NCBI GenBank assembly: GCA_050230475.1
Contig: JBFLGF010000062.1
Span: forward strand, 1-64,000
Direction: 5' to 3'
Source: Ancylonema sp.
Lineage: Eukaryota
Length of the DNA stretch: 64,000 nucleotides
A program made the position numbers and the translations under genes. The notes under the pieces are model-generated. The model saw only the letters and a list, made by a program, of their open reading frames with translations. It ran no database searches and had not been told where the DNA came from. Positions 5,819 to 54,956 of the stretch are shown in pieces. Positions within the stretch are counted from its first letter, which is position 1; each line of letters opens with the position of its first letter.

Positions 5819-12127
<6,309 letters not shown>

Positions 12128-14605: not shown

Positions 14606-17600
14606 ATGGCTCTTCGGCTCGGCGCAATCTCAGCAGTCATATTTCTTGTCGTCTTCAGCTGCTTTACAGCGATCTCAGAGGCGACTCCGACATTCAAAAA
14701 ACATCTTATTACCAGCCTACCTGGAGCGCCGAATGCTGTCTACAAGTGACTCAGTCTGGAAATACATCGTTTTTTGAGAGGACCAACATTCGCGATAACT
14801 TATGAGCTGATGATATATCAGATGGCATCTGGGGATCATGTCATAAGTTACCTCCCATTACATTTTTTGTTGTAAAATACTTGAGCATTTTTTACGATGT
14901 TGTTGCATTGTTATAACGACATGCCAGACTGCTGCTTCTAACATAGCATGATAATATGATACTATGATACTATGATACTGATGATGCTTCTATCATGCTG
15001 AGCAGAAAGTGATTTGTTGTATGACTGACTGCATACTTATGTCTCACACTCAGTATTTTTACTGACTAGTGTGGGGTAACGGACCACCTATCGATTATAA
15101 GAACCCATTCATTAACTGAATCCTACCGTGTTGTGTGAGTGTGTAGTCAGTACTCTGGGTACATCCATCTCTCGGATGACCTCAATGGCAAGGCTCTGTT
15201 TTTCTGGCTCGTGGAATCAGTGATCGCACCAGAGACGAAGCCTCTCACACTTTGGCTTAATGGTGGTAAGTGCCCAAGATTTCCACAGAGTCAAGTCAGA
15301 TTAACGCCATCATATGTTCGTCTCAGCGAATATTGTGTAAGCCATGACAGATGGTGCATCAACTTCAGCGAATACTGTATCAGCTGCTGCATAGATCATT
15401 GCACATGTGAGAACCACTTATCTTTCAGCTATCACCATCGCACTACAGGAACTACCGTCTTTCTCCTCGTGCATCCTTCATTACGATGCTCTACACCTGC
15501 AATGGATCTCTGATTCGGAATTCGGATTCTCCACAACCTCACGTCACATGTGCTATCGATCCCATTCATCAAAAAGCTCAATCAAAGGTAGGCAACCAGT
15601 CCCAAAAAACTCTGTCCCAGTGGTTGCTTTCTGCCAGCTGTCAAAACGTGTTTCATTTCCCCCCCCTGCCCGACCAGGTCCCGGTTGCTCTTCGGTTGGC
15701 GTGGGTGCCCTAGCGGAGTTGGGGCCGTTCTTCACCAACAAGGCAGCCAATGGCCTCAATCTCAATCTGCACGCATGGAACAAAGGTCAGAACCGTTACA
15801 ACCGGCATAACCGTCATAGTCATAATGTTCATAATCGTCCTATCTGTGCGGCAGAACCGCTTTTGGAAGCTGCTGCTGTTGTGGGATTTCATCCGGTTAT
15901 TAGAGAGAACGTATGAGGGAATCTATGCTGACAGGAGTTTCGTTGATTCTGATATGTAGATTTACTTGTGATAAAACAAGGACAAATTTGCATGGTGCTC
16001 GCAAACGGCAGATTCATGTGTAGTCCCTACTCGACATCGGATTTGTTGTTCGATCCGTCAAGGAGATGTCGATCCCTCGAACACCTACTACAGAGGAGTA
16101 CCGATTTCAATTTCGGGATGCGCATGATGTGGCTTGTTGTTCCCTCTAGTTATTTTCAGATACTTGTTTTTATCCTCCTCCAGAGTGTTGGTAGGCGAAC
16201 AGTGTCCCTCATGTTGTCCGTCTCTCTTCCTTGGTTGGTGCAGAGTCGAATATTTTGTTTCTTGAGCAGCCTGTGGGCACGGGGTACTCGTACTCCAACA
16301 CATCCTCGGATTACGTCATGGGGGATAAGCAGGCTGGTGATTACTCCGATCTCCCCTCTGCCGATGGAAGAAGAACATGAAAATCAAAAAAACGAACGAA
16401 AGAATATGGTTCATGGGTCAACTTACGCACCAAGATCCTGCTTCCTGTCACCTGATTTTAGTCACAGAAACACTACAGCTGTAAGAGGGGCGGCCGCACG
16501 TCAGCATCAAGCACAAACCAGGGAAAAAAACAAGAAATAACAGAAGCTAGTCAAAAATTATAGTCTTGACATTCTGTCGTGTTCCGATCCACCCCCCTCT
16601 CCCCCCCCCCAGCAATCGACGTCCACCACTTCCTCATGCGATGGCTCAACGTGTTCTCTCACTACATTGGTCGAGACTTCTACGTGACTGGCGAGAGCTA
16701 TGGCGGCCATTACATTCCGCACATCGCCAAACAGCTGTGGGAGAACATGGACGTATCTGAGCCGCACATCCCTTTCAAGGGGTTCGCGATTGGGAATCCG
16801 TGGACGGATCCTGCCGTTGACTACCGGGGGGAGGTTGACTTTTGGTACTCGAGAGCGCTCATGTCCACGGAGACGTACACCAAACTGACGGAAAACGTGA
16901 GAATTTTATTTTGGGGTATTTTGGATCATTTTGGGAAGGATCGTTTTGGATAAGAAAATGAATCTCTTTCGTGATTTCGATTTGTCTTGGAGCACGAATT
17001 TCTTTCATGGCATTTTCTGCTTTCCAGGTTTTCGGGTCCCAAGATTCAGGCTACGGCTGCCTGAGGTGTGAGCTCATAGTTCCGTACAATTCATGTGATT
17101 GATGGTCTCTTCATTCATTGATTCACCTCCCATTCCTTCAAAAAAAAAATCAGTGTGGTGTTGTGGACTACTGGGAAGATATCCCTGGCTCCATCTGCCT
17201 CGACTATCTCACGAGGGCGTATACGGAAATGGTGAGAGGGGAGGAAGCACCGAAAACTAGAGCACTAAGCAATAGCGTAGCGTAGCGTATCGAATTGTAT
17301 GGCGTGGTATCAGATCTCATCGAATCGGATTCTGATACGAATGTATGACGTCGGATCGTACGGTGTCGGGTTGGTGTGGATGAGATTGTATGATCCATGA
17401 TCAATGATCAATAATCAATGATGATATTGTTTTGACGATTGTACATGAGGGAGTATTAATGAAAGGGTTTCCAGAACGGTGTATCATTTTTTCTTCTTTG
17501 TTTTACTGCAGTAAGCAAGCAGTGTGCAAAGTTTTCATTATTTGGTCTGAATTCTTCCCCCTCTGCTGTCTGATTCAGGGCGACGTCAACATCTACGACG

Positions 17601-19217
17601 TGTACGTGGACGTGTGTCATCCCAATTCGGTGACACCCTCCGTGAAAGCGCTACTCGACATCAAATACAAAAATGTAAGAAGAGGCAAACCACACCCACT
17701 CCCCCTCCCACTCCCACTCCGACTACCACTGCCAACTGAAAATCGAAAAAAAAAGAGATGATGTTGTTGTTCATTCCAAATTCATTTCTGCCATTTTTCC
17801 CATATTTCTGCCATTTTTACTCGTTTCCACCATACCTCATCATGCCTCCAATCCCTACCGCCCCCTCCCCTGTCACTAAGCCTTCCCCATCCTCCCCCCA
17901 CCCCCCCCCAGCTCCACCAGCGCCTGTCCGCCCGCTCCCCCTCCCCAGTCACCCCCTCCCCAGTCACCCCCTCCCCAGTTACCACCTCCCTCCCCTGGGA
18001 GTACGACCCGTGTGCTCACTGGCAGGTGGAGGTGTATCTGAACAAGAAGGAGGTGCAGAGAGCGCTGCATGCCAACACCACGGGGCTGCCGTGGGAGTGG
18101 ACGGAGTGCTCGTGAGTAGAGGGGAAGGAAAAGGAGGGAGAGAGGGGGGAAGTGGGTGCAGACGTGTATGTAGGTGGGGTGGAGGAAGTATGAGCACATG
18201 GGTTCATTTTTTGCGGTTTACAGAGGTGATGTACGGGAGTAGCAGGGCATGTTTCGATGCCATGCATCAAACATTCATCATGGGCATTTCTCATACATCC
18301 AAAATAATTTCGGGTTCATAAAAATTGAAGGGGCAACATTGAAGGGGACGTAAAGGTTTGATCATGAGTATCCGGCGCAGAAAGAAGACACATCTTCATG
18401 TAGAATACTAATACAGAATGATGTCTATACAAGATATCCGCTGCAAAGTATGCGTTTCTCTACCCCCTCACCTCCATCTCCTGTGTAATTTTCACATCAT
18501 TTTCATCTCAACCTTCCCCCCCCCCCCCCTTCAGCACCGTTCTCCAATACTCCGACTCCGACTCCCTTGCTTCCGTCCTCCCCCTCTACCACGAGCTCCT
18601 TCAGACCCCCCTCCAGATCCTCATTTTCTCGGGTGACGTGGACAGCGCGATACCGACCATGGGGACGAGGAGGTGGATCCTGCAGCTCGAAGGGGAGGGG
18701 CATCTGAGGAAGAGCAAGGCGTGGGAGGCGTGGTATCTGGAGGAGCAGGTGGGGGTTATGATTATTCTTGGGTTTTCCCTCCCTCTTCTTTTTTAATTTT
18801 TTAATTTTTTAATAATAATAATAATAATATATAATAAATGAAGTAGAATGACATCAGTTATCTTCCATTCCTTCCACGCCATTGTTTTTTGTACTTCTTC
18901 CTATCGGTATCCCCCCCTCATGTTTCCGAACTTCCATTCCCATCCCCGGTTTGCAGGTTGGCGGTTACTCGGAAGAGTACAACAACGGCAACTTCCGATT
19001 CGTGACCATCCGTAACGCGGGCCATATGGTCCCCTACATGCAACCCGCACGTGCGCTGCAAATGTACAAAGCGTTTCTCGCGAACACCTCCATGCCGACG
19101 CAACATGCGCCAATCAACGCGAGACGCAATAATGATAATGGCGGAGGGGAGGAGGGGGAGGAGGAGGAGGAGGAGGAGGAGGAGGAGAAGGTGGAAACTG
19201 TTTTGCTCGCGATGTAG
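14606..19217 (+). CDS. serine carboxypeptidase-like protein (S10), copy 2. 10 exons, approx. 14606-14745, 15147-15265, 15678-15785, 16244-16336, 16613-16896, 17154-17231, 17579-17674, 17912-18111, 18535-18748, 18957-19217
   Basis: Signal exon MALRLGAISAVIFLVVFSCFTAISEA...SLPGAP, then QYSGY, WLNGGPGCSS, FLEQPVGTGYS, GESYGGHYIP, SGDVDSAIP, IRNAGHMVP; the catalytic triad is intact. Confidence 0.93.
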
Positions 19218-33149: not shown

Positions 33150-34435
33150 CCGTGCCGATGTAAGAATTTATAGATTATTGAAACCCGAATATTGTGATAG
33201 TTTTGTAGATGATGTAATCGCCAAATAAATTACTTCAAATCATTGACGTTAATGTTGCTTTTTGATATGCGTAGAAATCCCGGATTCAATTTGATCATTT
33301 TCTCGGAAATCGAGCGCGTCAAATGACATGTCACACGTGGGTAAGATAAATTATAGAACACACAATTGAGCTTATTTTTCCAGTCGACATTCCCTTTCAC
33401 CGTTGGGTATTGTTGGATCTAGAATATTCCTCGTGCACAAAGCCGCGTCTTTATTTCATAAATGCCAGCTTCCACTATTAGTTCACGTTTTTTTAATTTA
33501 AATATATTCTGCATTAACGATTATTTTTTTGCAATCTTTTTGAATTCTATCATCGTATCTTTTCGTTGTCAAGTGCACCATTCGCCTTTGACGTATTTCC
33601 AATTTTGTGTGAGCTTCGTGTCGTTCCATGAGATGTAAGCTTCTCGACTTTTTTGCTTGCTTGTGTGTGTTATCTGAATCCGAAGTGAACGGAAGCCGTG
33701 TTTCATTTTGCGTCCGCATCGTTGTAATAATGTCGTTCACATAATTATTGCTACGCTTGCAATTATCGTTACCTTCGCAAGAGATGTTGTCAACCGTTTA
33801 TTCACATCATTAGATCGTTACGTTGAAAGTTGCGCCGTTTTTTGTACGCTCTACTAGCTTATTCGCTCCATTCCATTTTGTTGAAGTCGTGTCTTTAACC
33901 TTTGAATCGTTTATTCATTGCATCGTTTGAGCTTGCAAACCGTTTAGCGTATTCTGAAGTATCAACCATTTTCAACACTTCCATCTATAGAAATTCATCG
34001 AACCTTTGCCCTGATGTCTTTTGAAACAATTGTCCACCGTTGCTGACATTATTCACTCGTACTTCTTGATACTTGGTTGTTACCAAGACCTCAAGTGTAG
34101 TCGGTTCGAGTGCATCTAATTATTCAGTGGGCATGAATTCTTCAATGTTCATACTTGTGAAGCACACTGATAAGTCACATATACTAGCAAAAAAACCATC
34201 CGCTGCTAATACCATTTGAGACCCAATCGTCAAATCACTCTACCATGATCAGATGATTACTCCAAAACTGGTGCAAGACGTTGCAAATTCCATGAAAGCA
34301 TCAACTACAATCCGTCAAATTCATCGGGGGGGGGGAGGGGGGAGCAGCTTTCCAGCTTTCCCCAAAATTTGTCAATTTTTTGGTTTTTGCCAAATTCCAT
34401 CGACAAGTTCCATGTCGACTCCATCTGGCGCGTCA
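33150..34435 (+). mobile_element. old degenerate solo terminal repeat (D) related to 50989-52421; left boundary approximate
   Basis: Colinear matches to C: TGCCAGCTTCC, AATTATCGTTACC.T.GCAA, TGTCA.CCGTTT, GTGCATCT, and the end CGACTCCATCT.GC.CGTCA. Confidence 0.65.
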
Positions 34436-38699: not shown

Positions 38700-40330
38700 G
38701 TATTTGATTGCACGGCGGTATGCCCGGTCTTTTTGCTGTTGGTTTGGAGTTGGTATGTATTGATGTGTTTTGAGTAATGTCATGGTAGCATTTCCATCCC
38801 AAATGTCAACTTTGAGGTCGTTAGGTAGTGGTGTATCTTGGTGGTGGCTGAGGTAGTATGATGGTGATACTTGAAGAGTTGGAGATGTCTCGAAGTAATA
38901 ACATGGTGTTTTCTCCCCCAGTGTCTCAATCTCATGGTTGTCTGTAGTGATTTCGGGTAGTGGACATCGGCTACATCCATCCGCGTTGGAGTTGGCTATG
39001 CCAGGGCGATGAAGAGTGCCCAGAGTGCCAATTTACCCGTAAGTTTTGTAGTAGTCATTATCCATTTGAGTGGGGCATGGTCGGTGATCAAGATAAATGG
39101 TTTTCCAAACAAAAATTGTCTGAAATGTTGTGCTCCCAAATGACTGCAAGACACTCGCCATGGAAACTACCGTAGTTTTTCTCTGCGTTGTTGCACCTGC
39201 GGCTGGCGAATGCGACTGCATATTCTTGTCCTTCTTTGTCAACTTGACTGAGTACCGCACCTAATCCATGAGCACTCCAATGTGTAGCCAGAATGTATGG
39301 TAAGTTGGTATCAGGTCGTCTAAGGACAGGTTCATAACAGAGCTTGGTTTTTAGTTCTTTGAATGCAGTATCTTGAGAGTCGCCCCACTGCCATTTGACA
39401 TCACCTTTGAGAAGCTCATTGAGTGGTAAAGCAATTTTGGAGAAATGTGGTACAAATTTTCGGTAGTAGGTAAATAGTCCCAGAGCTGCCCGTAGTTGGT
39501 GAATATCCTTGGGTGCAGGCATATCCTAGATTGCTCGGGTTTTCTCATCTTGTGGTGCAATGCCTTTACCGGAGATCTTATGCCCTAAGAAATCCATTTC
39601 ATCTGCGAAAAATAAACATTTTCGTGGACGACATTTGAGTTTGAATTGTCGCAGGCGATGAAACACTTGACGTAGATGTTGAATGTGGTATTCGTGCCGC
39701 TCCAGTTACTGATGTCATCAAGATAGCACCGTGAGTTGCAAAGACCAGCTAGGATGCGATCCATAGTGCGTTAGAAGAATGGAGGTGCGTTTTTCAATCC
39801 ATATGGTACGACATTCCATTCATATAGTTGGCGGTCTGCTCCCCAAAATGCAGTTTTACATTTTTTTTCCTCAGCGATTGGTATTTGGTGATATCCTTGC
39901 CGGAGATCCAGTTTGGTAAAGATCTAAGCATCCTTCATATTGAGAAAAATGTCCTCGATGCGTGGTAATGTTTGATTGTTGATAGGGCGGTAATCTCCAC
40001 ATTGACGATAGTCTGTGTAGTTGCCTTCTTCATCCTTTTTGCGAACAACGACTGTGGCGGAAGCGTAATGGTTGCTATCGCTTTTTCGGATCATTCCAAG
40101 TTCCATAAGTTTTTGACAATTTCCGCGTACAAATCCCCATTCCGCCTATTTCAGACAGGCGGTGTGAGTTTTGGAAATTTGGTTGTGTAGTTTGGAGTGG
40201 TATTTCCACAAGTTTATTGCTAGAAGGTAGTAGTTTTTCTAAAGAAAATGCGAAAACATCTTTGTTTTCCTTGAGTAGTTCAATGACTTGTAGCTTTTGT
40301 TCCTTTGTCAAGTTGTTTCCTATTTTCCAG
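38700..40330 (-). pseudogene. Ty3/gypsy reverse transcriptase-RNase H of element A, with stops, frameshifts and deletions
   Basis: YRQCGDYRPIN, LPRIEDIF, TKLDLRQGYHQI, KTAFWG, PYGLKNAP, CYLDDI, FLGH, ALGLFTYYRKFVPHFS, GLGAVLSQ, AFASR, EKNY, ITDH, NADGCSR. Confidence 0.92.
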
Positions 40331-40614
40331 GTAATAGGTTCAGCTTCTGTGGTAGGATTGTTGTCGTGTGGTTATGGAATGACATTGCCATATGTAACCG
40401 TTGTAGATTGGTAACTTGTCTCAAACAATAGTGCCAGAGTCATGGAGATAGCATCGTTCCGAAGTTGTGGTTCGTTGTCTGGTACAATATGTGAATGGTC
40501 ATGGTTTGGGTAAAATGTAGAGGTGTGGTTATCATAGTGGAGTGTATGATAAGCTTGTGGTATTTGGTATTTCCCACCCCCCCTATCATTGGTTGAGAGG
40601 GTGGGGTCCGATTC

Positions 40615-42039
40615 CTATATGAGGTTATATGATGGTATCGCATGAGTTGCCACTATCATGCCCCTTAACCATTTTTCCATGTTGCGATCCATAGTGATGC
40701 CCAAAATAACTTTGCGTTGGTCTTCTCTGATGCCTGGTGCACATGTGTCACCGTTTTCAAACCCCATGAGTCTCTTCCGTTCCCATAAGTTTGCTTCTTC
40801 CCAACGCTGTGTGTCGACGTTGTAAAGCATGCCTGGTCCTGGTTCTTTCCAACGTTGAAAAGTGAACTGGTAGCTGTCTGGGTAAGACACCAGAGTAGGT
40901 CGTGCACGGCGAGGTCGTCCAGCTTTGTTGACTGATGTAAATGGTGGTTGGTCATCGGTCAAGACTTTGTTGGGTCTATGGTGTGGTTCCAAAATTTTGT
41001 GAAGAGGTAGTAGGTTGGGTTCATCTGGTATAGCGAGTTCCAGAATGTTTGGTGCTAGCAAGTTGGTCCATAAACAGCGGACTCTGTGTGCCGTGCTACC
41101 AAAGCTGCATGCATCGACCACTGCTGGAAAGCCTAGAAAAGACTTGATGAGAGTAGTGGTATCCTTGACTTCTTTGATGAGGTCACCGAATGGGTATGTG
41201 TTTTCAAGTACGAATACTGGTGGAATTTTTTGTACTTTAATCAGATGGTTGAGGTAGCGAATCAAGTGGAAAAAGAAAGGAAATATACGGTCGTAATATC
41301 CTTTGCCTTGTCCTACCTTGCTGATCATCTGGCATTCCCATCCTGCGAATATGAAGTCTATTGGTCCTCGTTGTGCAATGAGTCTGTCCAAATCGTCGTT
41401 GGAAATTTTTGAAATGTCATGATCGAGACGTGTGTCAAACCCTTTGATTGCACTCGTGGGTAGTAGTCCGGGATAACGAGTTTGTATCTTTGGTAAGAAA
41501 GCTCTGGTTATATCTTGAGCATCTTCATCGATATCTGTGTTGGTGTAAGTGCCAATCTTCTTGCCTTGTTCGACAGTCATTATGGCGTCCCTGCAACTCA
41601 TGCCTCCAAATGGTTCCCAAACATGTAGTCCATTTTGCAGTGCTTTGGGGTCAAAACGTGCGGTGTAATCCGGTGTTATAGGAACCGCATCACGAATCGG
41701 TATACCTTTCCATTCAGTCCATGGTGGTAATGGTGATGTTCTGGCTTTGTCTATGGCATTGCGCAAATATGAAGCATTGGTAATGCGCAAAGTGTTGAGG
41801 CGGTTGGTTGCATGGTGTTCGTTAACTTGGTTCAGACATTTCGCAACCATGTTCAATTGTGGTCGACTGGCTTGACGAATATTTGTATGTTTGGTGGTGG
41901 CGAGATAGACCATGGTATTGGCTTCCCATTCTTGCAAGTTTGGTTCATATGGTTGTTCTTGAGATGCATCAGATGAGTATTCTGGTTCAGAGTACAAACC
42001 ATTGCTGGCAATGTTGAATTCAAATGCGGTGAGTACATC
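40615..42039 (-). CDS. C5-cytosine DNA methyltransferase domain within the element A polyprotein (between protease and RT)
   Basis: Motif I VWEPFGG, HDISKI (III), motif IV IFAGWECQ (catalytic Cys), motif VI FVLENT, motif VIII AHRVRCLWTN, IX ERKRLMGF, X ILGITMD; open over about 470 codons. Confidence 0.9.
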   Translation of the reverse strand, partial: DVLTAFEFNIASNGLYSEPEYSSDASQEQPYEPNLQEWEANTMVYLATTKHTNIRQASRPQLNMVAKCLNQVNEHHATNRLNTLRITNASYLRNAIDKARTSPLPPWTEWKGIPIRDAVPITPDYTARFDPKALQNGLHVWEPFGGMSCRDAIMTVEQGKKIGTYTNTDIDEDAQDITRAFLPKIQTRYPGLLPTSAIKGFDTRLDHDISKISNDDLDRLIAQRGPIDFIFAGWECQMISKVGQGKGYYDRIFPFFFHLIRYLNHLIKVQKIPPVFVLENTYPFGDLIKEVKDTTTLIKSFLGFPAVVDACSFGSTAHRVRCLWTNLLAPNILELAIPDEPNLLPLHKILEPHHRPNKVLTDDQPPFTSVNKAGRPRRARPTLVSYPDSYQFTFQRWKEPGPGMLYNVDTQRWEEANLWERKRLMGFENGDTCAPGIREDQRKVILGITMDRNMEKWLRGMIVATHAIPSYNLI

Positions 42040-43699
42040 TGTCATGACGCTAGAGATAGCTAAGGCGAAACCCCTCTAGATTGATCAAGAACCCCTCTAG
42101 ATTAATACTCTGCTATAGCGAGAGTATTGCATATAACGATTTTCTAGAACTAGTACTTTACAAGAAAAATAGTGAAGTATGAAATTCGTACGACTCGAAA
42201 ATAACGTGTGGCGTATTTTCCGAAGTCTAGAATCCAGCAGTCTTCAACAAATAGGTGCGTGTCGATTTTGTTAAAATCGCAAGTCTCTTTAGACTTGTCG
42301 ATAATCCCGGCGATTAAATCCAACCGTAGAACTAGAGGAATATCTCGCGCCGCTTTCATCGGAGCGCCGAGATTAATTGTAATTTTCTAGAAGCCAGCCT
42401 CTCGCTATCTTCGACAGTTTAACTCTAGTTAACTCTGCCGGTTAGCACCGCGCAACAGCTTTGTGATATAAGTCAAATTGTACTTTCAGATCTGGCAGCT
42501 TCCGCTGTCAGATTGTGTTGTTAAGAAGTCCCTTCCAACAATATTTTTGTGTTATCTGAATCCTTTGCAATTCTGTGAACATTGCATCCCTTCGTTTACG
42601 CGACTACGCAACGTGCTCGTCTTCCGACTCAGCCTGACATCCGACAGCCAGTCGGTAAGATTGCAAATCATTCGTTGCAATCTGTGTGTGTGTGTATTTG
42701 ATCTGATTCATCTAAATCTGTTGCTGACGCTCTTTCTAAGCCAGATTGTTAATCGACTGTAACTTCTTACATCGATTCGCTGACGCTCTGTCTGAGCCAG
42801 CAAGCGTGTGTGTGTGTTAAACATCTGTCGATTTGCTCGCGTTCGCTCCGAAGCGGAAATTTCATTTGTGTGTGTGTGTTTGTTGTCGCTCGCTCCGAGC
42901 CAGCATCTGTTGTTTACACCTGTCTGCTGACGCTCTTTCTGAGCCAGCATCTTTTATCGACGCGCCGTCGATACTTTGCTTTCGCACCGAAAGTAACTCT
43001 TACGGCTGTTAACCTTGATAGTCTGCTCCAGACTACCAGACTATCTTGTTTGCTTTATAGTATTTTCACACTATAAACCATCTGTTAGGCCCTCGGCGTT
43101 ACGTAGTGAATTTCACCAGACCGCTGAGACGTGTGATAGATATGATATTGATATCTCAGCAGAGACTCAATCTGCAGTACTACTTACTTCAATCCGACCG
43201 CGGAAGACCTTGAATTATCAACAATTTAAAGTCTGAAAAGGTAAATTGCCTTAAAAAAAAATTGTTTTTTTTTGGCAACTTTTCTTCTACTATTTTGTAT
43301 TCGATGTGCTCGCAAGAGTAGTGCATGCAGTGGTCACGAGATAGTAGAGGGAGATTAACCAAACTGGAGATAACTAAATCTGCTGAAATTATCGATCGAC
43401 CAGCTGCACCAGCTATCGACAAAAACTGTCCACGATCACCGGACATTGATATAATTAATATCGAATCATCAGCTGCACCAGTTGTTGATACTTATATTCA
43501 TACTGATATTGACAATTCAGCTGCACCAACTGTCAATATCTCGGCATTCCATCTGCCTAGTACCCTTCTCGATAACGATTCTACAACCCAAATATAATTA
43601 ATATTTGAACCCAACAAATTGACATGTTCTACATCTGAACCAGAACAATCTTTGGAACGCCTACCTACAGGCTCCATTAACTTGAAACTTGTTTTGATT

Positions 43700-46694
43700 A
43701 TTGACACAGACGACCACATCGTCGACACCACAACATCTGTGGCTGGACCATCGACCACTGTTCTCACTACAACGCCACCAAGCGCTGCAACAACATCCAT
43801 TTATCGACACAAGATAGATAAAAGGTGGGACAGACTCTACCATGGCCAACCCAACGCCACTACCGACATATACTAGAGAAACTGGTGTCAAACAAGATGA
43901 GTTCATCGATAGTTTGAGACAGTTAGACCGAACCCAACAACGCGCACAGCGTATGGGGCATGTACAGTGGGACTGAGTACTTGCAGCAGGTCAGTATATG
44001 AAAGGAGAAGCTCATCGAGAATGGCAACAGTTTGTACGTGACAACCGTGGTACTACTACTACGGAAGATATTCGAGATATGTACCGTGAGCATAATTCCA
44101 ATGTCGCATATTATCGTCTGCAAGGTAGACAGGATGGACAACATGCACCGATCAAACCCACATTATCGGCAGCAAAACCAACATAACTGGACTTGTTCAT
44201 CACTACCATCAAAAATCGTTTTCGAACTTCAGCTGCAGAATTTGTCACTTAGATCGAAACATTTTCAGCACGACCCAACGACTGTGTTGCAACCACATTT
44301 GCACGCTCTTTAACGACCCAACAACAATTGTTCAAGAGGCAGGAGCCATGACAGAAGAACAACTGGCTAGGAGGTATATACCACATATTCCTCTACCACT
44401 ACAGTCTTATATCGACGACTGGCATTTTCGAGAATCAGAGGAAGGGTACTACAAGAATCCACCGGATCCTCCTATTACCAAGAAGGAAATTATGGAGAAA
44501 GCTAACAAGGCTGAATTACTACGTATGAAACAAGACGCGGAGAACCGCGCAACCGGGATCACCAGATCTCCTAAACTACCTTCATACACTCCATGTACTC
44601 CATACAATGCTCCTAAACCAACAGGCGTATTGACACCACGACAGGATAACAGCATGGAATGCTATAAGTGTCATCAGACCGGACACCTTTCGCGTGACTG
44701 TCCTGCACCAAGGAAACAAAACAACTTTCAGTCATCAGGTTACCAATCTGATAAAATTTCCAAAACCAACCAATCCTCAGGATCATAGTTTAAGGGAGGT
44801 GCGTACCGTACTGAAAACATACAAACTTTCAAACCACGACCTCGCCAGTTTGATGCAAAACAGTACACCGCTGATGCATTCTGTGAATACTGCAAAGGTA
44901 AACACCACACCCGAGACCAATGTCAGAAACTTGCCAAGGTACAGAACTTCCTAACTCTCAATACACCACCCAGTGCAGATACCCAACCCAAACAAATCGT
45001 GGAAGACTCTGAATCCTGAGACGCAGACAAGTTACCTGGCTATGCAAGTAGACGACTTGGCACGCCAACGAGAATTCGAAAACATGTCGCACCAAACAAC
45101 GGACTCTGAGATCGCAGAAAAGGCACATGACAACGCGGTTGCACTTGTCAGCTCCATGCAAGAACCTGCAGCCCAATACACTACCAATCAGGATTTCACC
45201 ACTACTTCACCACGCAACTCTCAGGACACCAAATATGCTATCCAACATAAGGAGAAGAAAGCCACAGCAGACCAATCTGCGAGAGACAGTGAATCTGCAC
45301 GTGTCGGCCCACGCCGTTCCATTCAATTCGGCTCCCAACCTGAGGAGGCCGTCTTGCTTACTTTACCACCGGTCAAAGCGGTAGCAGGTGATTATGAGGA
45401 TAAATATCCCCTTACACCTGGCTCCACGCGCATTGACCCTCCACCTGAGTTCACAACGGACTATGGGGAAATACAAGAAACTGCGGATACACCTCACCAA
45501 TCAGTAGTACGCAAACGATTGGAAATCGAGGACAAAATCAAGCGCAAATGCATTCCTGAGGCACTTGAACAAGCAAAGTTTATAGATTTCAACCAACCCA
45601 TCTCACCTCGCAGCACTGTGTGTCAAACATTCTTTCGCGCTGCTGAGTTTGAAGATGCACATACTCCTATGGAATTGGATACCTCAACAATTATATCCTT
45701 AGACATTTCAACCAAACCTATATCACCTCAACATTCGCTACCTACTTCTGACACTCAATTCCTTTCAAACATTCTTTTTGATACAGACCTTTCTCGGGCT
45801 GACAACGACACCTTCGAACCAAATGAGCTACACGAGCTCACTAAGGACGACTTTCGAAACCGATACCACGCTATGATCTCGCAACAGAAAATTTCTCGAG
45901 CAGTCGTCTTCAAAGCAGCCAAAATAAAGGCAGAGGTAACGATTACACGAAGAATATCATAACTCATCAACGAACAAAAATCGGTGCTTCTCTGCAAGGA
46001 TGTGCAAGCAGATGTCGACATCGCCGCAGCTCGGGAGGAGGAAAAGAGCAAATGGATTCAGCAGTATGATCTTCTAGTGGATACACTCCATTCCAAATTG
46101 GAAGACAAGATGCAGGACCTAGTCGTTCTTCACGCAACGTAACTCCAAGAAGTTCGCTAGGAAGCTGCTCGTCTGGAACAGAGGCTACAAATGGAGATTG
46201 GCAAGAACGTACTGCGCGGCGAACATTCAGCACCAATTCCCAATTCCCCACTTACCAGCTGTGCACCCTCCACATCCATTAGTTCTGCACCTTCTCCTGC
46301 TGCCAGCACCCCTACCCAACCAGGGGGTGATACCATGGACACCTCGGAGGCCATAAAACCTCCTACAACTGCTGCGTGCAAACGGGAGGCGTATTCCACT
46401 CACCCCATTTTGATGGATAGTCGGCGGTCTACACCTACAACTCCCAACTCTTCATCCCAATTACCCAATGCACAAGACCCGGGACAATCCATTGTCAAGG
46501 CGATGGAGAAGGAAGCTGTGAAGAACAAACCACTCGGTGCCTACGCACACCTGCGCGACCCAAGAGACAAAACCGACGTTGCTCAACGTCTGGCACGCAC
46601 GAATACCAATGTGTCAGATTTTACCTTCCGTCAACCATTCATTCGACCGGCTATGGCTGTTAGGACCCTCGCTACAATCACTAGGGCTCCCTAG
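43700..46694 (+). pseudogene. gag-like ORF of element B plus a long uncharacterised extension, interrupted by stops
   Basis: CCHC knuckle CYKCHQTGHLSRDC (~44660), a second knuckle FCEYCKGKHHTRDQC (~44880), then consecutive ORF fragments 44973-45962 and 46191-46694. Confidence 0.75.
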
Positions 46695-47110: not shown

Positions 47111-48442
47111 ATGGCGCATCTCCTCAGCATGGGCGCCATCCCGAAGGCTTTCTCCGGAGCAGACCGCAGCAAATTAGCAGATTCCATCTACGCGCCAGAC
47201 ATCCTGCATTACGGAGACGCCCGAGAACATCAGGCGAAATGACCAAAATTGTCTTCGTGAGGCACACCTCAAGTTGGCACATGACTATCAACCAATCCCA
47301 CCATCTATCAAATGGTGTGGTCCTACATTTTAAGGTGCATATGAACTACCTCGTACCATCATTTCCACGCAACCAGCTTCTGAGGCTCGTGGCCTGCACA
47401 TCTACATCCCCTTCGGCAACTTGGAGATTGTGGAGATATGTCTGGAGGGAGGCTCCATTGTTTCCAACGTCACGCCGCAGACGGACTGCATCCACACCAA
47501 AAACCGCTACCTTCAAAAGCTGCGACAACTTCAACTCCGATTTCCAGACCAGCTGCCGAACTCTGCGATCGAGCACTGTGATGAAATTCTGTCTACCAGC
47601 GTCACCGACACGACAACATAGTAGATGGACGCACTTTTCCGTCAAAAAGGCCCCTTCGACGTAGTCGGTGGTAACTATCACACAGAGGTGGATCGCACCT
47701 ACAACCCTCTACGTGGCGGTCAAGACCATCGCCTCGCTCCACTCCTCGTTGTCATCAAATGGATGCACTACAGCGCGCGACTCGCACAATTCTACCCGGT
47801 GCACATTTTCTACACCCACATCGGCACACCCGAGTACCCTCCTTGGGTGGACGCCCTGTACCACGTGGCGCGTGCATTCCTTGGCAACGCTGCAAATCTC
47901 CAACCACTCCAGTTCCAAGGCCACGTACATCGCCCAACCCAGGTGTGGACCAACTGCATCACACCACGCGAGCTGGAACTTGCGCAACCCCACAAGATAT
48001 GGCAGACCCGGGAGCCTCTGCAGAACCTTCTGCAACCGGGGCACACAGCTCAGATCTTGACACTTCCCGACCCGGTGAACCATCACCGCATGGGCAACCG
48101 CTTGGCTATTTTTCCCACTCTGAGTCCTTACCTCCGGACAACCAACTATACGTTGCGCTCGGATGGACGACCCGGCATCGGTATGCTGTTCGATGCACCA
48201 TCTCAGTAGTACGTGCCACCTTCTCCATTCGAGATCGAGCAAGCTCTTGGACGACCTGTGGGATACACAGCACATGGCCGCATCACCGACGCCATGCGCG
48301 CTGCTCATCTGGGCCACATGATGGACGGACGACTCATCATGTTCCTGGAGGAAATCCTCCAGGGCACCAAACCATAGGAATCACCCCTCACCTCGGAACA
48401 CAGGTATTTACCACCCTCGACTCTGGGGGGGAGGGACACTAG
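47111..48442 (+). pseudogene. divergent, catalytically dead DNMT-like ORF of element B
   Basis: Colinear with the element A DNMT: GLHIYIPFGN/GLHVWEPFGG, RFPDQLPNSAI/RYPGLLPTSAI, QKGPFDVVGG/QRGPIDFIFAG, AFLG...HRPTQVWTN/SFLG...HRVRCLWTN, RPGIGMLFD/EPGPGMLYN, LGHMMD/LGITMD; a few stops. Confidence 0.8.
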
Positions 48443-49260: not shown

Positions 49261-49272
49261 GGGGGGGGGGAG
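49261..49272 (+). promoter_or_regulatory. polypurine tract of element B
   Basis: GGGGGGGGGGAG immediately before the TG of repeat B1. Confidence 0.8.
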
Positions 49273-50988
49273 TGAGAGCAGCCGGACCACCGAGTCCACC
49301 TGAGACCCTTCGATCACCTACAAACATCATCTATACCAACCCAGTCGACATCATCACTACACCACCGCGTGCATTACCACATGCATCATTATGAGAAACA
49401 TCCGGGAACAAAGGGAACAAAGTATGAAGAATATAATTTCGGGCGGCCGACTCCAAACAACACGTCACCTGTCATGACGCTAGAGATCGCTACGGCGAAA
49501 CCCCTCTAGATTGATCACGAACCCTTCTGGATTACTACTCTGCTATAACGATAGTATTGCATATAACGATTTTCTAGAACTAGTACTTTACAAGAAAAAT
49601 AGTGAAGTATGAAATTTGTACGACTCGAAAATAACGCGTGGCGTATTTTCCGAAGTCTAGAATCCAACAGTCTTCAACAAATAGCTGCGTGTCAATTTTG
49701 TTAAAATCACAAGTCTCTTTCGACTTGTCGATAATCCCGGCGATTAAATCCACGTAGAACTAGAGGAAATATCTCGCGCCGTTGTCATCGGAGCGCCGAG
49801 ATTAATTGTAATGTTCTAGAAGCCAGCCTGTCGCTATCTTCGGCAGTTTAACTCTAGTTAACTCTGCCGGTTAGCACCGCGCAACAACTTTGTGATAAAA
49901 GACAATTTGTACTTTCAGATCTGCCAGCTTCAGCTGTCAGATTGCGCTGTTAAGAAATCCCTTCCAACAATCTTATGTGTTATCTGAATCCTTGCAATTC
50001 TGTGAATATTGCATCCCTTCGCTTACGCGACTTCGCAACGTCTCGTTTCCGTCTCCTGACATCCGTCAGTAGCCAGACGGTAAGTTTGCAAATCATTATT
50101 TGCAATCTGTGTGTGTGTGTATTTGATCTGATTCATTTGAATGTGTTGCTGACGCTCTTTTTAAGCCAGCTTGTTAATCGACTGTAATATCTTACATCGA
50201 TTCGCTGACTCTCTCTCTCTAAGCCAACAAGCGTGCGTGTGTGTGTAAAGCATCTGTCGATTTGCCCGCGTTCGCTCCGAACCGGCAATTTCATTTGTGT
50301 GTGTGTGTGTGTTTGATGTCGCTCGCTCCGAGCCAGCATTTGTTGTTAACACCTGTCTGTTGACGCTCTTTATGAGCCAACATCTTTTATCGACGCGCCA
50401 TCGATACTTTGCTTTCGCACCGAAAGTAACTCTTACGGATGCTAACCTTGATAGTCTGTACCAGACTATCTTGATTTCTTCATAGTGTTTTCACAGACTT
50501 TTGTACTATAAACCATATGTTAGCTCGCCTTCGGCGTTAAGTAGTGAATTTCACCAGACCGCTGAGACGTGTGATAAATATAATATTGATATCTCACCAC
50601 AGACTCAATCTGCAATACTACTTAGTGAGAGCAGCCGGACCACCAAGTCCACCTGAGACCCTTCGATCACCTACGAACATCATCGATATCAACCCAGTCG
50701 ATATCATCACTACACCACCGCGTGCACTACCACATGCATCATTATGAGAAACATCCGGGAACAAATGGAACAAAGTATGAAGAATATAATTCCGGGCGGC
50801 CGACTCCAAACAACACGTCACATCATCGTCCTCAGAAGAATGTCATAAAGCAAGATTGGGTTCCTGCATGAAAGTATCTACTGAAGTATATGTCACTCTT
50901 GTCGTCATGTATTGACATTAAATACTTGCAGCATGTGGTATACTGTATCAAACTGGTATCGATTCTTTCTTGTGTCCTCCGAGATCCC

Positions 50989-52421
50989 TGTCATGCCGCT
51001 AGAGATCGTTAGAAAGCAAAGTCTTTTTAATTGTCGATCCGCTTGAAAAATAGCAATTTTGGTAATTGTCGATTTTTAGTCGTTATGTTAGTCGTTATAT
51101 TGAACTCTGTCGTTATATGAGTTTCAATCAGTCAGACGTTTGATTTGATAAAAAATTTATACTCAGTCAATCTAGAAAAATCGATGTACCACTTTTTAGA
51201 TTTTAATTCGGAGTATTCGAGTTAGTAGATTCCCAGTGCGCGAGCTTTATTTCAGTCAGCCAGCCTGGCGTTTGAACCGCCGCACGTGTTAAATCTATAA
51301 CTCTAGACTAGACAGTCACGATTGGTTGTCTACTCCGATATTTTTTTTCAACCATAGATCAAGATAAGGATCTAGATTACCGCGCGTGTGAAACGGCGCG
51401 TCGATTGTACTAAAGCCTAAGTCGCTTTCTAAACTGCCAGCTTCCGCTGTCAGTTTACGCTGTTTGAATCACAACAACTCTTTGCAATCGCCATCTTTGC
51501 AATCTTTGTGAATTCGTGTATTCTGCAATCGTCAACAATCGTTATCAAGTGTGCCGTTTCGCCATTGATACTTTGTCTCTGATTTTTGCAAACTTCGCGT
51601 CGCTCCATCCAGCCGTAAGTTCTGCGAAATTGCCTGTTTGCTTGTGCGTCGCATCTCAAGTAGTACAAAAATTCGTGTGCCGTTTTGCATACGCATCGTG
51701 TGAAATTCTGCCGCAGTCATAATTATCGTTACCCTTGCAAAATTTTGACCCTTGCAAGTCGTTGATTGTCAGCCGTTTCGCTGACTTCAGAAATCGTTAC
51801 AATTAGCTGCACCGTTTCGTGCGAGCTCAGTCAAACAATTCACCCTTTGAATTGCCTGCACCCGTTCCAGATCTAGTGAATCGTTTTATTCACGACAACG
51901 TTTGATTCCCGAAACCAATAGTGAGTGCGCACCCCGTCGCAACTAACTATCATTCATTATGCACCCTTGTATAAATTCTATAGCTATTTGCCTTGCGTTC
52001 TTTTTAATCGTAGCTGTCACCTGTTGTGAAGTACGATAACCTGCAACGCTTGATTAACCATAGTGTTTTTTATAGAATTCCCACCACTAAGCGTTGAGTG
52101 CATCTCAGATTTCGGCGAGTAGTAGCTACGGCAAACTTCGTTGATAAGTCATATACCGTGCTTGAATTACATTCTTGTGTGGTCAGTAGGGATTCAACCT
52201 ACACCAAACTACTCTAGTGAGATCCAGATGATGACCGTAGGCCCAATCCTGAATCTCCTCATCCAGACACGCAGCCAAGTCATCAACCAACAACCGTCAC
52301 TTTCATCGACGCAGAAAAATATAGAAAGTCAAGTTTTGCAGATTTTTCCAAAATCTGTCGATATCTTTATTTTTGAGAGATTTCGTCGACAGGTTGTCTG
52401 CCGACTCCATCTCGCACGTCA
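50989..52421 (+). mobile_element. element C: solo A+B terminal repeat of a related family; TSD TCCC
   Basis: TGTCATGCCGCTAGAGAT...GCACGTCA with TCCC on both sides; internal A/B junction ACTACTCT-AGTGAGA (~52217). Removing it restores the host frame RVDW-DLGGHKK. Confidence 0.88.
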
Positions 52422-53700
52422 TCCCAGTCCACCCGGTAATGAAATTCTTGAATCCAAGGGTCAGTGATTCCTCCGATGGGTGCGAAGAATGTGGTGCCAA
52501 GAAGTACGTCGAATTTGTCAGATGGTGAGAGATGTTGTTTGGTCTGTACATAAGTCTGGTTATGTCCTTCTCCGATTGTAATAGTACATTTCTTTTTGGT
52601 TGTGCCCAATGATTGATGACTTTTGCCTTTAGAAATAATATATTCAATGCCTTGTTCCAAGTCAGTTGATGTGAGACCCAATTGTTTGGTAAACCTGGAC
52701 CCAATCATGACATTCTTTGCTCCTAAATCATAGATGAGAATTGTTGGTGGTTCCCCTCCAATGGTGATGATCCCTTTAGAATTGTCAGTTTTTGGTACAT
52801 GCCAATTGGTTGCCAGTCGTGCGTCACATGGTATTACTCGTGGTTTGTTGGTTTGTGGTCCTGCAACAGATAGAGCAGGGTTTGGGTTTGGCATAGGTGC
52901 CTGTGGTGGATATGTATGAGGTGGTGGTACATCCCCATGTGGTGAATCCAGTAGTAAATTTCTGCGATGAGGACAATTTGACATAGTGTGTCCTTTTTGT
53001 CCACAAAAAAAACATTGTACCTCTCGCATGGTAGTATCATAATGGTGGTTGTGGTCCTGGTCCCGATAGTCGTATTCTGGTAGTGTCGTACTTCTTGTTG
53101 GAAGAAGTTCACATTCTGTCTCGTGGTCTGAAGTTCTTCTGACCTCGTTGTTGTTGTGAGGCGTAGCAGTCCAATTGAGTGATGTAGATGTGCTCATTCG
53201 CTCGATGATTGTTTGCACCACTCGTTCTAGCTGGGTGTCAAAAATGTGGATGGCGAGGTCTGGTGTAGTTTCGTCCATTGGCATCGCTGAGTAGGAGACT
53301 GCGTTGATTTCAGCAGTAGCGGTGTCGATGATGTCGTTGATGTTTCGTGTAACCATGTTGTCTTTCCATTGTTGCTCATCTGTGTGTAGCTGTACTGCGA
53401 GATGATTTGGAAACACTTGCTCCCATTCCTGTAGTCGATACTTGCATTAAATTTGAACATGGTCCATGATTGTTTCCTGTACCTTTGGTGCAAAGGCTTG
53501 GATGACCGTAGTGTGGGTCTCAATCTGTTCCGCTATCTGTCCAAGTCTGAAGTATCGGAAGTCGGAACTGATGTTGGTTGCTTTCTCACTCATGTCTTTC
53601 TATTAGTATATATCATTGAGTTTGGATTCTGCTACCGAAGCTTGTTGTTGAAGAAGTGTATTACTCGTTGCTTGGTTGACAGCACTGATCATTGAAGAAA
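52422..53700 (-). pseudogene. gag (zinc knuckle)-aspartic protease region of element A
   Basis: ORF 52367-53416: CFFCGQKGHTMSNC, ILIYDLGAKNVMIG, FDVLLGTTF. Confidence 0.85.
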
Positions 53701-53781
53701 CTGGTAAAATAAAAAATGGTCAAATTCTGGTAATAAAATGACTTTCTGCGATAAAAAGTCTTCCGCTGGTGTGATTGAAGT

Positions 53782-54956
53782 TGGGTTGCAAAAAGAGTCT
53801 CTGCTGAGAATTAGGTGTTCCGCTAGTTCTATCACACTTTCTCGTGCGTGAATGTGTGGAACACTACTTGACGCCGAGGGCGAGTCGACAATTACTATCA
53901 ACAATAGAAAGTCTAGACAGGATGATTGATGGTAAACAGAATATTCTGGTGTCGAATATTAGGGTCGACAACCGAAAGGTAAACTTCCGAGTAGAAAGTT
54001 CGGCTGTCAAACGGTGCGGTGAGAGATGATAATTGATGGATGTGATGTGCTGGTTCAGTTAGAACGTCAGCAAGTGGTTGCGCGTCGTTATCGTACTAAC
54101 TCAGTACGAGCGTAAGTGAATCGACGTAAATCGACAAGAGTAGTTCTCGCTCAGTAAGAGCGTCAGCAACGTGGTATATGATTATGGCTGGCTCCGTAAG
54201 AGCGTCAGCACAAAGATGTGATGGTAAACAACAAGTTTACACGCTGGCTCAGTGAGAGCGTCAGCGAAACAACACAAGTAATGACAGGAAGTTGAAGTTG
54301 CGAAGGTCACTTCGGTCAACTTACAGAATTCGTCGACGGTAGTCGCACGAGAAATCGTAGACAAGACACGAAGATAAGGGCAAGAACTAGCGTCAGCCAC
54401 GAGTTGCAAAATTCAGATAACATAATTGACAAGATTTCTGAGAAAATATCTTGAAAGTTTCTTGACGGCGCAATCTGACAGCGGAAGCTGGCGGATCTGT
54501 ACAATGAAAAATGTATGTATGCTACGATCGTCAAATCGTAAAACTAACTAGAGTTAATCGACATGGTTAATCGACAGGCTATACTCTAGAAAGTTCTATT
54601 TAATCTTGGCGCTACAAATATAGACGTCAAGTATTCTACGGCTGGATTTTATCGCCGAGATAATATCGACAAGTCAGAAAATATCATCGTCGATAACAAA
54701 ATTGCGCAGAGCGCTGAAAAGTCGACACGCACTCTTAATTGTACGACTCCTGGATATTACAGTCGGAAAATTTGCCACGCGTTATTTTCGAGTTTACAAA
54801 AAGTTGTTAGATTTTGCGGAGTACTGATTCTAACTTCACACCAAATCATGAAATCGCTATATCGAATCTGTTTGCTTATAACAAGGTATTTTACTAGAAA
54901 GGACTGGATATTATTACAAAGGGATTTTACCCTTAACAATCTCTAGCGTCATGACA
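53782..54956 (-). repeat. 5' terminal repeat (A part only) of element A
   Basis: Shares the start TGTCATGACGCTAGAGAT, GCCAGCTTCCGCTGTCAGATTG, GCTGACGCTCT motifs and the end CTCAGCAGAGACTC...ACTTCAATC with A1 of element B. Confidence 0.85.

Follow-up and report, generated by a model that had tools for sequence, protein, structure and literature searches.

How does a retroelement with no site for a transfer RNA (tRNA) primer begin to copy its RNA into DNA? The question is raised by a retroelement, here called the A1-element, on the plus strand of a 64-kb stretch of Ancylonema sp. DNA (contig JBFLGF010000062.1, positions 1 to 64,000; this whole stretch is the window, and element coordinates and strands are given on it). 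At the 5′ end of the element lies an 1150-nt repeat, repeat A. The repeat ends in ...ACTACTT and is followed by (ACTT)CAATCC... in the A1-element, in a diverged relative called element A and in contigs of the family, and a TGG-type tRNA site is absent after it, as a preliminary description of this DNA had noted. In its place stands a sequence complementary to a segment of the repeat itself. Our best reading, to which we give a probability of roughly 0.55, is that the element, like Tf1, uses the 5′ end of its own transcript as the primer for minus-strand DNA synthesis. The parts on which this reading depends are the following.

42040 to 43185, plus strand: 5′ copy of repeat A, which starts with the conserved TGTCATGACGCTAGAGAT, ends in ...ACTACTT and is 89.8% identical to 49466-50623
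42496 to 42515, plus strand: conserved motif CAGCTTCCGCTGTCAGATTG, of which 42499-42515 is the proposed self-primer part, with G42515 as the would-be 3′ end
43186 to 43189, plus strand: ACTT, a duplicated 4-nt sequence that separates the repeat end from the site in this copy and most relatives
43190 to 43206, plus strand: primer-binding-like site CAATCCGACCGCGGAAG, recognized from sequence, shuffles, duplex energy, pattern search and family contigs
49470 to 50623, plus strand: 3′ copy of repeat A, with a copy of the motif at 49925-49944

On the plus strand, CTTCCGCTGTCAGATTG (42499-42515) and the site at 43190-43206 are complementary at 15 of 17 positions, just as the preliminary description had proposed; the two mismatches are T42506xC43199 and A42510xC43195. 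When the 25 nt 3′ of the repeat were compared with the 1150-nt repeat, 42499-42515 was the top ungapped complement. None of 300 shuffles of these 25 nt reached a match of 15/17, and the shuffle maximum of 14 was attained in 4 of them. Duplex energies, for which 200 shuffles were made per element, pointed to the same place: the best duplex site in the whole repeat was the same conserved motif in the A1-element (-23.4 kcal/mol; reached by 5/200 shuffles) and the homologous motif in element A (-20.7 kcal/mol; 6/200).

The motif also stands out by its conservation. When five repeat copies representing three or more diverged families were aligned (both A copies of the A1-element, element A and two further copies, C and D), it was the most conserved block of the repeat, and four copies were found in the window at no more than 2 mismatches, versus 0.00 expected. 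The 3′ repeat of the A1-element carries it with one change (CTTCAGCTG). The copies outside the A1-element lie as follows.

53778 to 54956, minus strand: repeat A of element A, the diverged relative, recognized by similarity, with the motif at 54490-54471
53760 to 53777, minus strand: CAATCACACCAGCGGAAG, the primer-binding-like site of element A, which immediately follows ...CCCAACTT and pairs over 9+5 bp with 54487-54471
50989 to 52421, plus strand: copy C, a repeat A-like sequence from a third family, whose motif lies at 51438-51457 (2/20 mismatches)
33454 to 34435, plus strand: copy D, ~60% similar to C, in which the motif (33463-33473) is decayed

In element A, the 20-nt motif is identical to that of the A1-element. 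The preliminary description had paired 54471-54487 with 53760-53777 and left the strand unstated; we recovered this pair, with 9+5 bp, on the minus strand. It had also reported remnants of the motif in C and D, which holds for C (51438-51457) and in part for D (33463-33473).

A two-part pattern drawn from the site, CAATC-N(3-9)-GCGGAAG, matched 4 times in 64 kb versus 0.08 expected. Two matches are the sites and two are the motifs read backwards, and the pattern occurs nowhere else in the window. It was found in 0/27 unrelated loci that bear the motif by chance. Scans for the motif in other sequence collections returned no relatives: the 25 loci of a genome contig scan were all bacterial and about as many as chance predicts, and these, together with the single locus of a viral scan, serve as chance controls only. 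The one locus of the GCCAGCTTCCGCTGTCAGNTT metagenome scan has no similarity to the retroelement region, and its BLAST matches to the window are confined to ~30 nt of low complexity near 24.6 kb.

The location of the site is defined by a second module, B, in the 3′ part of the A1-element.

49261 to 49270, plus strand: G10 run, polypurine-tract-like by its sequence, directly before module B
49271 to 49467, plus strand: first copy of module B (AGTGAGAGC...ACACGTCA), separated by CC from the repeat A that comes next, and 96% identical to 50624-50821
50624 to 50820, plus strand: second copy of module B, which adjoins the end of repeat A without a gap (...ACTACTT|AGTGAGAG), with the same junction in contigs

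Two joints in the window, ...ACTACTT|AGTGAGAG (A-end|B-start) and G10|AGTGAGAG (G10|B-start), fix the repeat end ...ACTACTT independently. Family contigs that depart from the A1-element after 43186 continue with the start of B, GTGAGAGCAGC (25 contigs in run X1, 12 in X2 and 4 in X3). Because the repeat end is fixed in this way, the 3′ end of the would-be primer, G42515, falls at the minus-strand start point, exactly at U5. The G-run lies where plus-strand synthesis must start, so that B+A behaves as a functional long terminal repeat (LTR).

Variation within the family was read from contigs of host DNA runs and some metagenome runs, aligned to the region, with the share of each variant expressed as a fraction of depth. 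The family is very abundant: 14083 contig pieces in run X1 covered 42380-43330 at ≥80% likeness. Several metagenome runs contain it too, including one that is labelled a glacier metagenome. Within the site, 43199 is the sole position that varies at ≥3% in X1, with C>A at 5.3% of depth (20 contigs) and C>T at 2.2%. The C43199>A version, CAATCCGACAGCGGAAG, restores the pair with T42506 and is complementary at 16/17 positions. So is the site of a subfamily of 11 contigs (...ACTACTT|CAATCAGACAGCGGAAG), in which it abuts the repeat end. A 4-nt deletion at 43181, present in ~8% of depth (38 contigs, X1), removes the ACTT spacer before CAATC. CAATC therefore directly abuts the repeat end in ~8% of depth, in one subfamily and in element A, and because the spacer is missing there, the helix ends at the last repeat base in all of these. 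Without interruption, the major version pairs over at most 7 bp, element A over 9 bp, and the 5% variant and the subfamily each over 11 bp. For the presumed 5′ regions of the two elements (729 and 745 nt), this pairing closes the whole domain in the minimum-energy folds and in the centroid folds (z scores of -3.2 and -5.0), although they were computed from an assumed 5′ end, a starting point that favors closure by pairing.

That the complementarity exists, lies exactly at the repeat boundary and recurs in relatives, that a TGG-type site is lacking and that the coding content described below is gypsy-like are direct observations, and from them we infer every step of the following mechanism. Transcription would start a few bases upstream of 42499. 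The ~690-nt R-U5 domain would then fold so that CUUCCGCUGUCAGAUUG pairs with 43190-43206, in two helices, one GC-rich and 7-11 bp long, the other of 5 bp (GAUUG/CAAUC) and ending at the repeat boundary, which are separated by an interruption in which A42510 is always included. A cut by the RNase H of the element after G42515 would release a 3′ end, which would then be elongated through U5 and R, and plus-strand synthesis would be primed by the G-run in front of module B.

This scheme has close precedents. Self-priming is established for Tf1, where, in the portion of PMC7175516 concerned with the primer, 11 nt are used and RNase H cuts between bases 11 and 12; for Tj1 it was inferred from sequence (PMC4600332, in the part that treats this element). 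It has also been predicted for the Tf1/sushi group, the plant Tcn1 elements and the TAR elements, and for 12% of the plant elements surveyed (Neumann et al. 2019, PMC6317226, in the section on priming). Predicted self-priming is already widespread in these groups, and the present case is a further member. With Tf1 and Tf2 of S. pombe, Tj1 of S. japonicus and the Tf1/sushi group, the elements described here share the lack of a tRNA site and the gypsy-type reverse transcriptase (RT) and RNase H. As in the Tf1 group, the site right after U5 complements the element’s own repeat near the presumed transcript start, and the 3′ end of the primer would lie at the U5 boundary. The differences are as clear. 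In Tf1, 11 bases pair perfectly and the mechanism is proven (PMC7175516, same portion), whereas the putative primer pairing here covers 17 bases with one or two conserved interruptions. Unlike Tf1, the fold-back domain is ~690 nt long and the coding order is gag-protease-DNMT-RT-RNase H, where DNMT denotes a C5 DNA-methyltransferase-like domain; unlike the Tf1/sushi chromoviruses, no chromodomain was found in the two relatives examined. For the Tcn1 chromoviruses of mosses and the TAR copia elements, self-priming was, as here, inferred from the sequence (PMC6317226, same section); the present lineage, DNMT-bearing and gypsy-like, is distinct from both.

Several observations weigh against self-priming. 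A42510 is unpaired in all four site versions, and the second mismatch of the major version persists in >90% of depth. The two elements with a site share an identical motif, and no difference between their sites is compensated; across the two elements and the read-contig variants compared, the compensatory changes by which the preliminary description proposed to check the pairing were not seen. In the standard model, plus-strand strong-stop DNA copies the primer. Since the plus strand copies it, we expect that a self-primer would tend to rewrite the site to its perfect complement; this was not seen and is unexplained. Copy C has the motif and lacks a primer-binding-like site after its repeat. 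In addition, a bare 9-mer complement lies within 2.5 kb of the motif in 6/27 of the chance loci and hence is not rare, which shifts the weight of the evidence to the position of the site and to the two-part pattern. A further point concerns the TATA sequence upstream of the motif.

42467 to 42471, plus strand: TATAA, ~30 nt upstream of the motif, copy-specific by sequence

This TATAA, which the preliminary description had cited at 42467, is indeed present in this copy and is specific to it; the family majority has A at 42469, and no TATA at that distance was found in element A, C or D in the five-copy alignment. The Tf1-like priming advanced in the same description is favored by the site position, its recurrence and the missing TGG, and is weakened by the uncompensated pairing and the persistent mismatches.

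The alternative that survives best, and that we regard as possible, is that the pairing is a long-range stem that closes R-U5 without acting as a primer. Such a stem would serve packaging, dimerization, template cyclization or the control of initiation, roles that long-range pairings beside primer sites have in other retroelements, and priming would fall to a different RNA. Persistent mismatches in a conserved but interrupted helix are easier to reconcile with a structure than with a primer that is copied into the site, and the computed folds are closed by this very stem. The motif is present in both repeats, so that the site could also pair with the 3′ end of the RNA and thereby aid the first strand transfer. 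The region is moreover made rich in RNA structure by repeated conserved hairpins.

42723 to 42948, plus strand: hairpin motif GCTGACGCTC-N5-GAGCCAGC, four copies in the presumed R-U5, found by motif search

At ≤3 mismatches this hairpin motif had 11 matches in the window, versus 0 expected, all of them inside A repeats (42723-42948, 50148-50381 and, on the minus strand, 54049-54265), and its copies fold as hairpins in both elements (stem, AC bulge, stem). In the copy at 54049-54071, GCTC/GAGC is replaced by GTTC/GAAC, and pairing is kept. These hairpins may be packaging or Gag-binding signals. What tells against a purely structural stem is that a primer is still required, with a 3′ end that pairs at CAATC right after U5, and no tRNA 3′ end fits there because TGG is absent. 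In addition, in three versions the end of the helix coincides exactly with the repeat boundary, which is not required of a mere stem.

The presumed R-U5 also holds a splice-donor-like sequence.

42655 to 42659, plus strand: GTAAG, splice-donor-like, the sole one in the repeat, 159 nt after the motif start

Exactly one GTAAG occurs per repeat, 155-177 nt after the motif, in 4/4 copies examined (42040-43185; 49470-50623; 53778-54956, minus strand; 50989-52217), mostly in a G|GTAAGT-like context; D is similar by eye only. It may be a conserved splice donor within the repeat, and its conservation suggests no more than that this strand is transcribed. A primer formed across a splice junction was considered and rejected: whichever downstream AG this donor is joined to, no more than 9/17 positions complement the site.

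A host RNA, either a tRNA fragment or another small RNA, is an unlikely primer. Its end would be the perfect complement of the major site, and the likeness to the motif would be secondary. The major site is invariant in >90% of copies despite its two mismatches to the motif, as if matched to an external primer, and half-tRNA primers are known in copia-type lineages (PMC6317226, same section). Against this, the primer needed would be identical at 15-16/17 positions to the element’s own most conserved motif, which is unlikely by chance (0/300 shuffles), and the other versions of the site, while differing from the major one, all stay near the complement of the motif. Rfam returned zero families up to E 1 for 41900-43500 on either strand. 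As the 5′ half of a tRNA, the primer would also violate the tRNA invariants G18 G19 and A21. The 9-nt core of the site in element A, CAGCGGAAG, presumably matches a part of the D arm in the eukaryotic initiator tRNA in the same sense; we treat this as a lead only, and the motif rather than the site would then complement that tRNA.

That the pair acts as DNA (inverted protein-binding sites, a promoter or recombination), or is a match without function, is very improbable: the 5′ motif does have a palindromic setting (CTGCCAGC TTCC GCTGTCAG) that could be a factor-binding site or core promoter, and an unusual terminal layout makes unusual DNA sites plausible, but the pair lies exactly at the U5 boundary and recurs in diverged relatives with changed flanks, and we know of no DNA-level role for such a pair.

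To what lineage does an element with this putative self-primer belong? The coding content of the A1-element and of element A is distributed as follows.

44129 to 44788, plus strand: gag-like open frame of the A1-element with a CCHC zinc knuckle (Pfam zf-CCHC, E 2e-6; tblastn match to the knuckle of relative P0086 at 44624-44755)
47202 to 48395, plus strand: degenerate C5 DNA-methyltransferase-like region of the A1-element, in a single frame with few stops, similar to P0002, P0086, P0049 and others
52370 to 53446, minus strand: gag (zinc knuckle) and retropepsin-like protease frame P0001 of element A, from Pfam and tblastn
39008 to 42035, minus strand: continuation of element A past nested insertions, with the DNMT-like open reading frame (ORF) P0002 and then RT and RNase H, from Pfam and tblastn

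In element A, residues 225-321 of P0001 matched Pfam zf-CCHC and three retropepsin families, all weakly (Asp_protease_2, gag-asp_proteas and RVP_2), and P0001 is colinear with the protease region of the relatives P0086, P0044 and P0017. P0002 is a minus-strand ORF (42075->40618), followed by RT and RNase H (40121->39008). The Pfam matches of this continuation are DNA_methylase, RVT_1, RT_RNaseH and RT_RNaseH_2, and P0086 and P0093 map to it colinearly by tblastn. P0086 in particular runs along the minus strand from protease (52798->52424) through DNMT (41421->40633) to RT and RNase H (40118->39008), and because of this colinear mapping we consider element A to be one Ty3/gypsy-like element that is interrupted by copy C and the A1-element. 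It ends near 39000, and its integrase part was not found in the window.

In the A1-element, the degenerate region at 47202-48395 matches P0002 with 24% identity over 401 aa (E 3.6e-26). Pfam scans of the window ORFs gave no protease, RT, RNase H or integrase match in the A1-element, which is a non-autonomous relative.

The order of domains is that of Ty3/gypsy elements (gag zinc knuckle, retropepsin, RT and an RT_RNaseH-type RNase H), with the DNMT-like domain inserted between protease and RT. The DNMT assignment comes from a weak match of P0002 to Pfam DNA_methylase (PF00145, E 1.1e-5) in an open frame of 486 aa with motif-like FGG, ECQ and ENT stretches. A full HMMER search with P0002 returned 803 relatives, many of them inside RT/RNase H/integrase polyproteins; word-based protein searches with the gag-protease frame and the DNMT-like ORF found nothing. 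Pfam scans of 40 relatives from the HMMER search showed two domain orders. Most of these proteins are polyproteins that run RT - RNase H - DNMT - integrase (H2C2, rve) - PHD, and the order gag - protease - DNMT - RT - RNase H - integrase is found in fewer of them (P0086, P0093, P0037 and P0044). The DDE integrase domain rve is present in P0086 and P0093, which share the domain order of element A, and most other scanned relatives have rve and/or the integrase zinc-binding domain. In the window itself no rve was found, and no tyrosine recombinase (Phage_integrase) was found in the window ORFs scanned or in the 40 relatives. A search for Chromo gave zero matches up to E 0.5 in P0086 and P0093, and no integrase was found in the window; other relatives carry a PHD finger in its place. 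From this domain evidence we assign the elements to a Ty3/gypsy-like lineage with gag, protease, a C5 DNA-methyltransferase-like domain, RT and RNase H.

The layout of the A1-element, the one complete element in the window and hence the basis of what follows, is A - internal - B - A - B (42040-43185 / 49271-49467 / 49470-50623 / 50624-50820). Module B measures 198 nt; none precedes the 5′ copy of A, and the 3′ copy has an additional B behind it. A plain pair of identical LTRs was not found, and the A-end|B-start junction is family-wide in the contigs. The element begins TGTCATG... and ends ...CGTCA (TG...CA), the internal B|A joint reads ...GTCA CC TGTC..., and a short direct repeat flanks the whole.

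42036 to 42039 and 50821 to 50824, plus strand: CATC on both sides of the element, a possible 4-bp target-site duplication, in a single instance

The 18-nt start motif TGTCATGACGCTAGAGAT has four copies in the window with 0-1 mismatch (42040-42057, 49470-49487, 50989-51006 and, on the minus strand, 54939-54956). It is kept in three families while the remaining sequence is only 60-70% alike, which is what one expects of a terminal recognition site.

An A1-[ORFs]-B1A2B2 layout is that of the Ngaro and PAT-like elements of the DIRS order (PMC8547959, in the part that describes their structure), and the A1-element shares it with this order. The resemblance extends to SymbioDIRS-Dnmt3 of Symbiodinium, which is drawn as A-coding-B-A-B, the same layout, and whose Pol includes a C5 DNA-methyltransferase domain (de Mendoza et al. 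2018, PMC5890265, in the part on these elements); in the same part, KnitGypsy-Dnmt3 of Klebsormidium is a retrotransposon that likewise has such a domain in Pol (PMC5890265). SymbioDIRS differs in having a tyrosine recombinase and a PF00075-type RNase H (PMC5890265, same part), whereas the RNase H here is of the gypsy type and the relatives have an rve integrase. The elements in the window differ from the DIRS order as a whole in the same direction: no tyrosine recombinase was found here, element A has a protease-like domain, the relatives carry rve, and a possible 4-bp target duplication is present. A split-repeat pattern of tyrosine-recombinase elements in an integrase-type lineage is stranger than the priming signature and is unexplained.

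One picture that would unite layout and priming, which we put forward as doubtful, is that of a high-copy, DNMT-carrying, gypsy-like family with split-repeat copies that would nevertheless be reverse transcribed by LTR logic. The self-primer site would follow A, the polypurine run would precede B, and B+A would serve as the LTR. The DNA would be circularized at A-end|B-start and opened at B|A (...GTCA CC TGTC...), with a 4-bp duplication on insertion.

The surroundings of the A1-element are complex, with ~39-55 kb forming a nest of decayed retroelements. The homology of copy C with copy D reaches to 52421; their likeness is ~60% over 1 kb and continues ~200 nt past the repeat end, to the point at which the protease homology of element A stops. 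C and D may be related to element A by nested insertion or by a shared target. Copy C was considered as a solo A+B, as the stretch after its repeat starts with AGTGAGA, as module B does, and this was rejected, as BLAST shows no similarity to B and the C-D homology extends 120 nt further. A B module upstream of the repeat of element A was likewise suggested by a weak likeness seen by eye that alignment did not support. In copy D, a G10-A-G6 run at 34323-34345 is followed by AGCAGC and resembles the boundary between the G-run and the start of B in the A1-element. Outside the nest, two sets of exon-like frames of Peptidase_S10 (serine carboxypeptidase) lie on the plus strand at 7341-19214, which suggests tandem host serine carboxypeptidase genes with introns at 7-19 kb. 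ARAGORN found 0 tRNA genes in the window.

What would these readings mean for the family? As sequence-based predictions of self-priming are already common, self-priming here, even if true, would leave the general picture unchanged. A DNMT-bearing, gypsy-like lineage without a chromodomain would join the retroelements that do without a host tRNA, and the known range would be extended to a longer, interrupted primer helix and a fold-back domain of ~690 nt. The layout is of greater consequence. If an integrase-type lineage really uses split direct repeats, its cDNA comes to be inserted in another way than in textbook LTR elements, and with thousands of family copies the question of layout is directly testable with long reads. 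The primer of DIRS-1 is stated to be unknown (PMC7192593, in the portion on its replication). If split repeats and LTR logic are indeed combined in these elements, the LTR and DIRS-type life cycles would be linked, and the site described here would be a candidate for the unknown primer of split-repeat elements.

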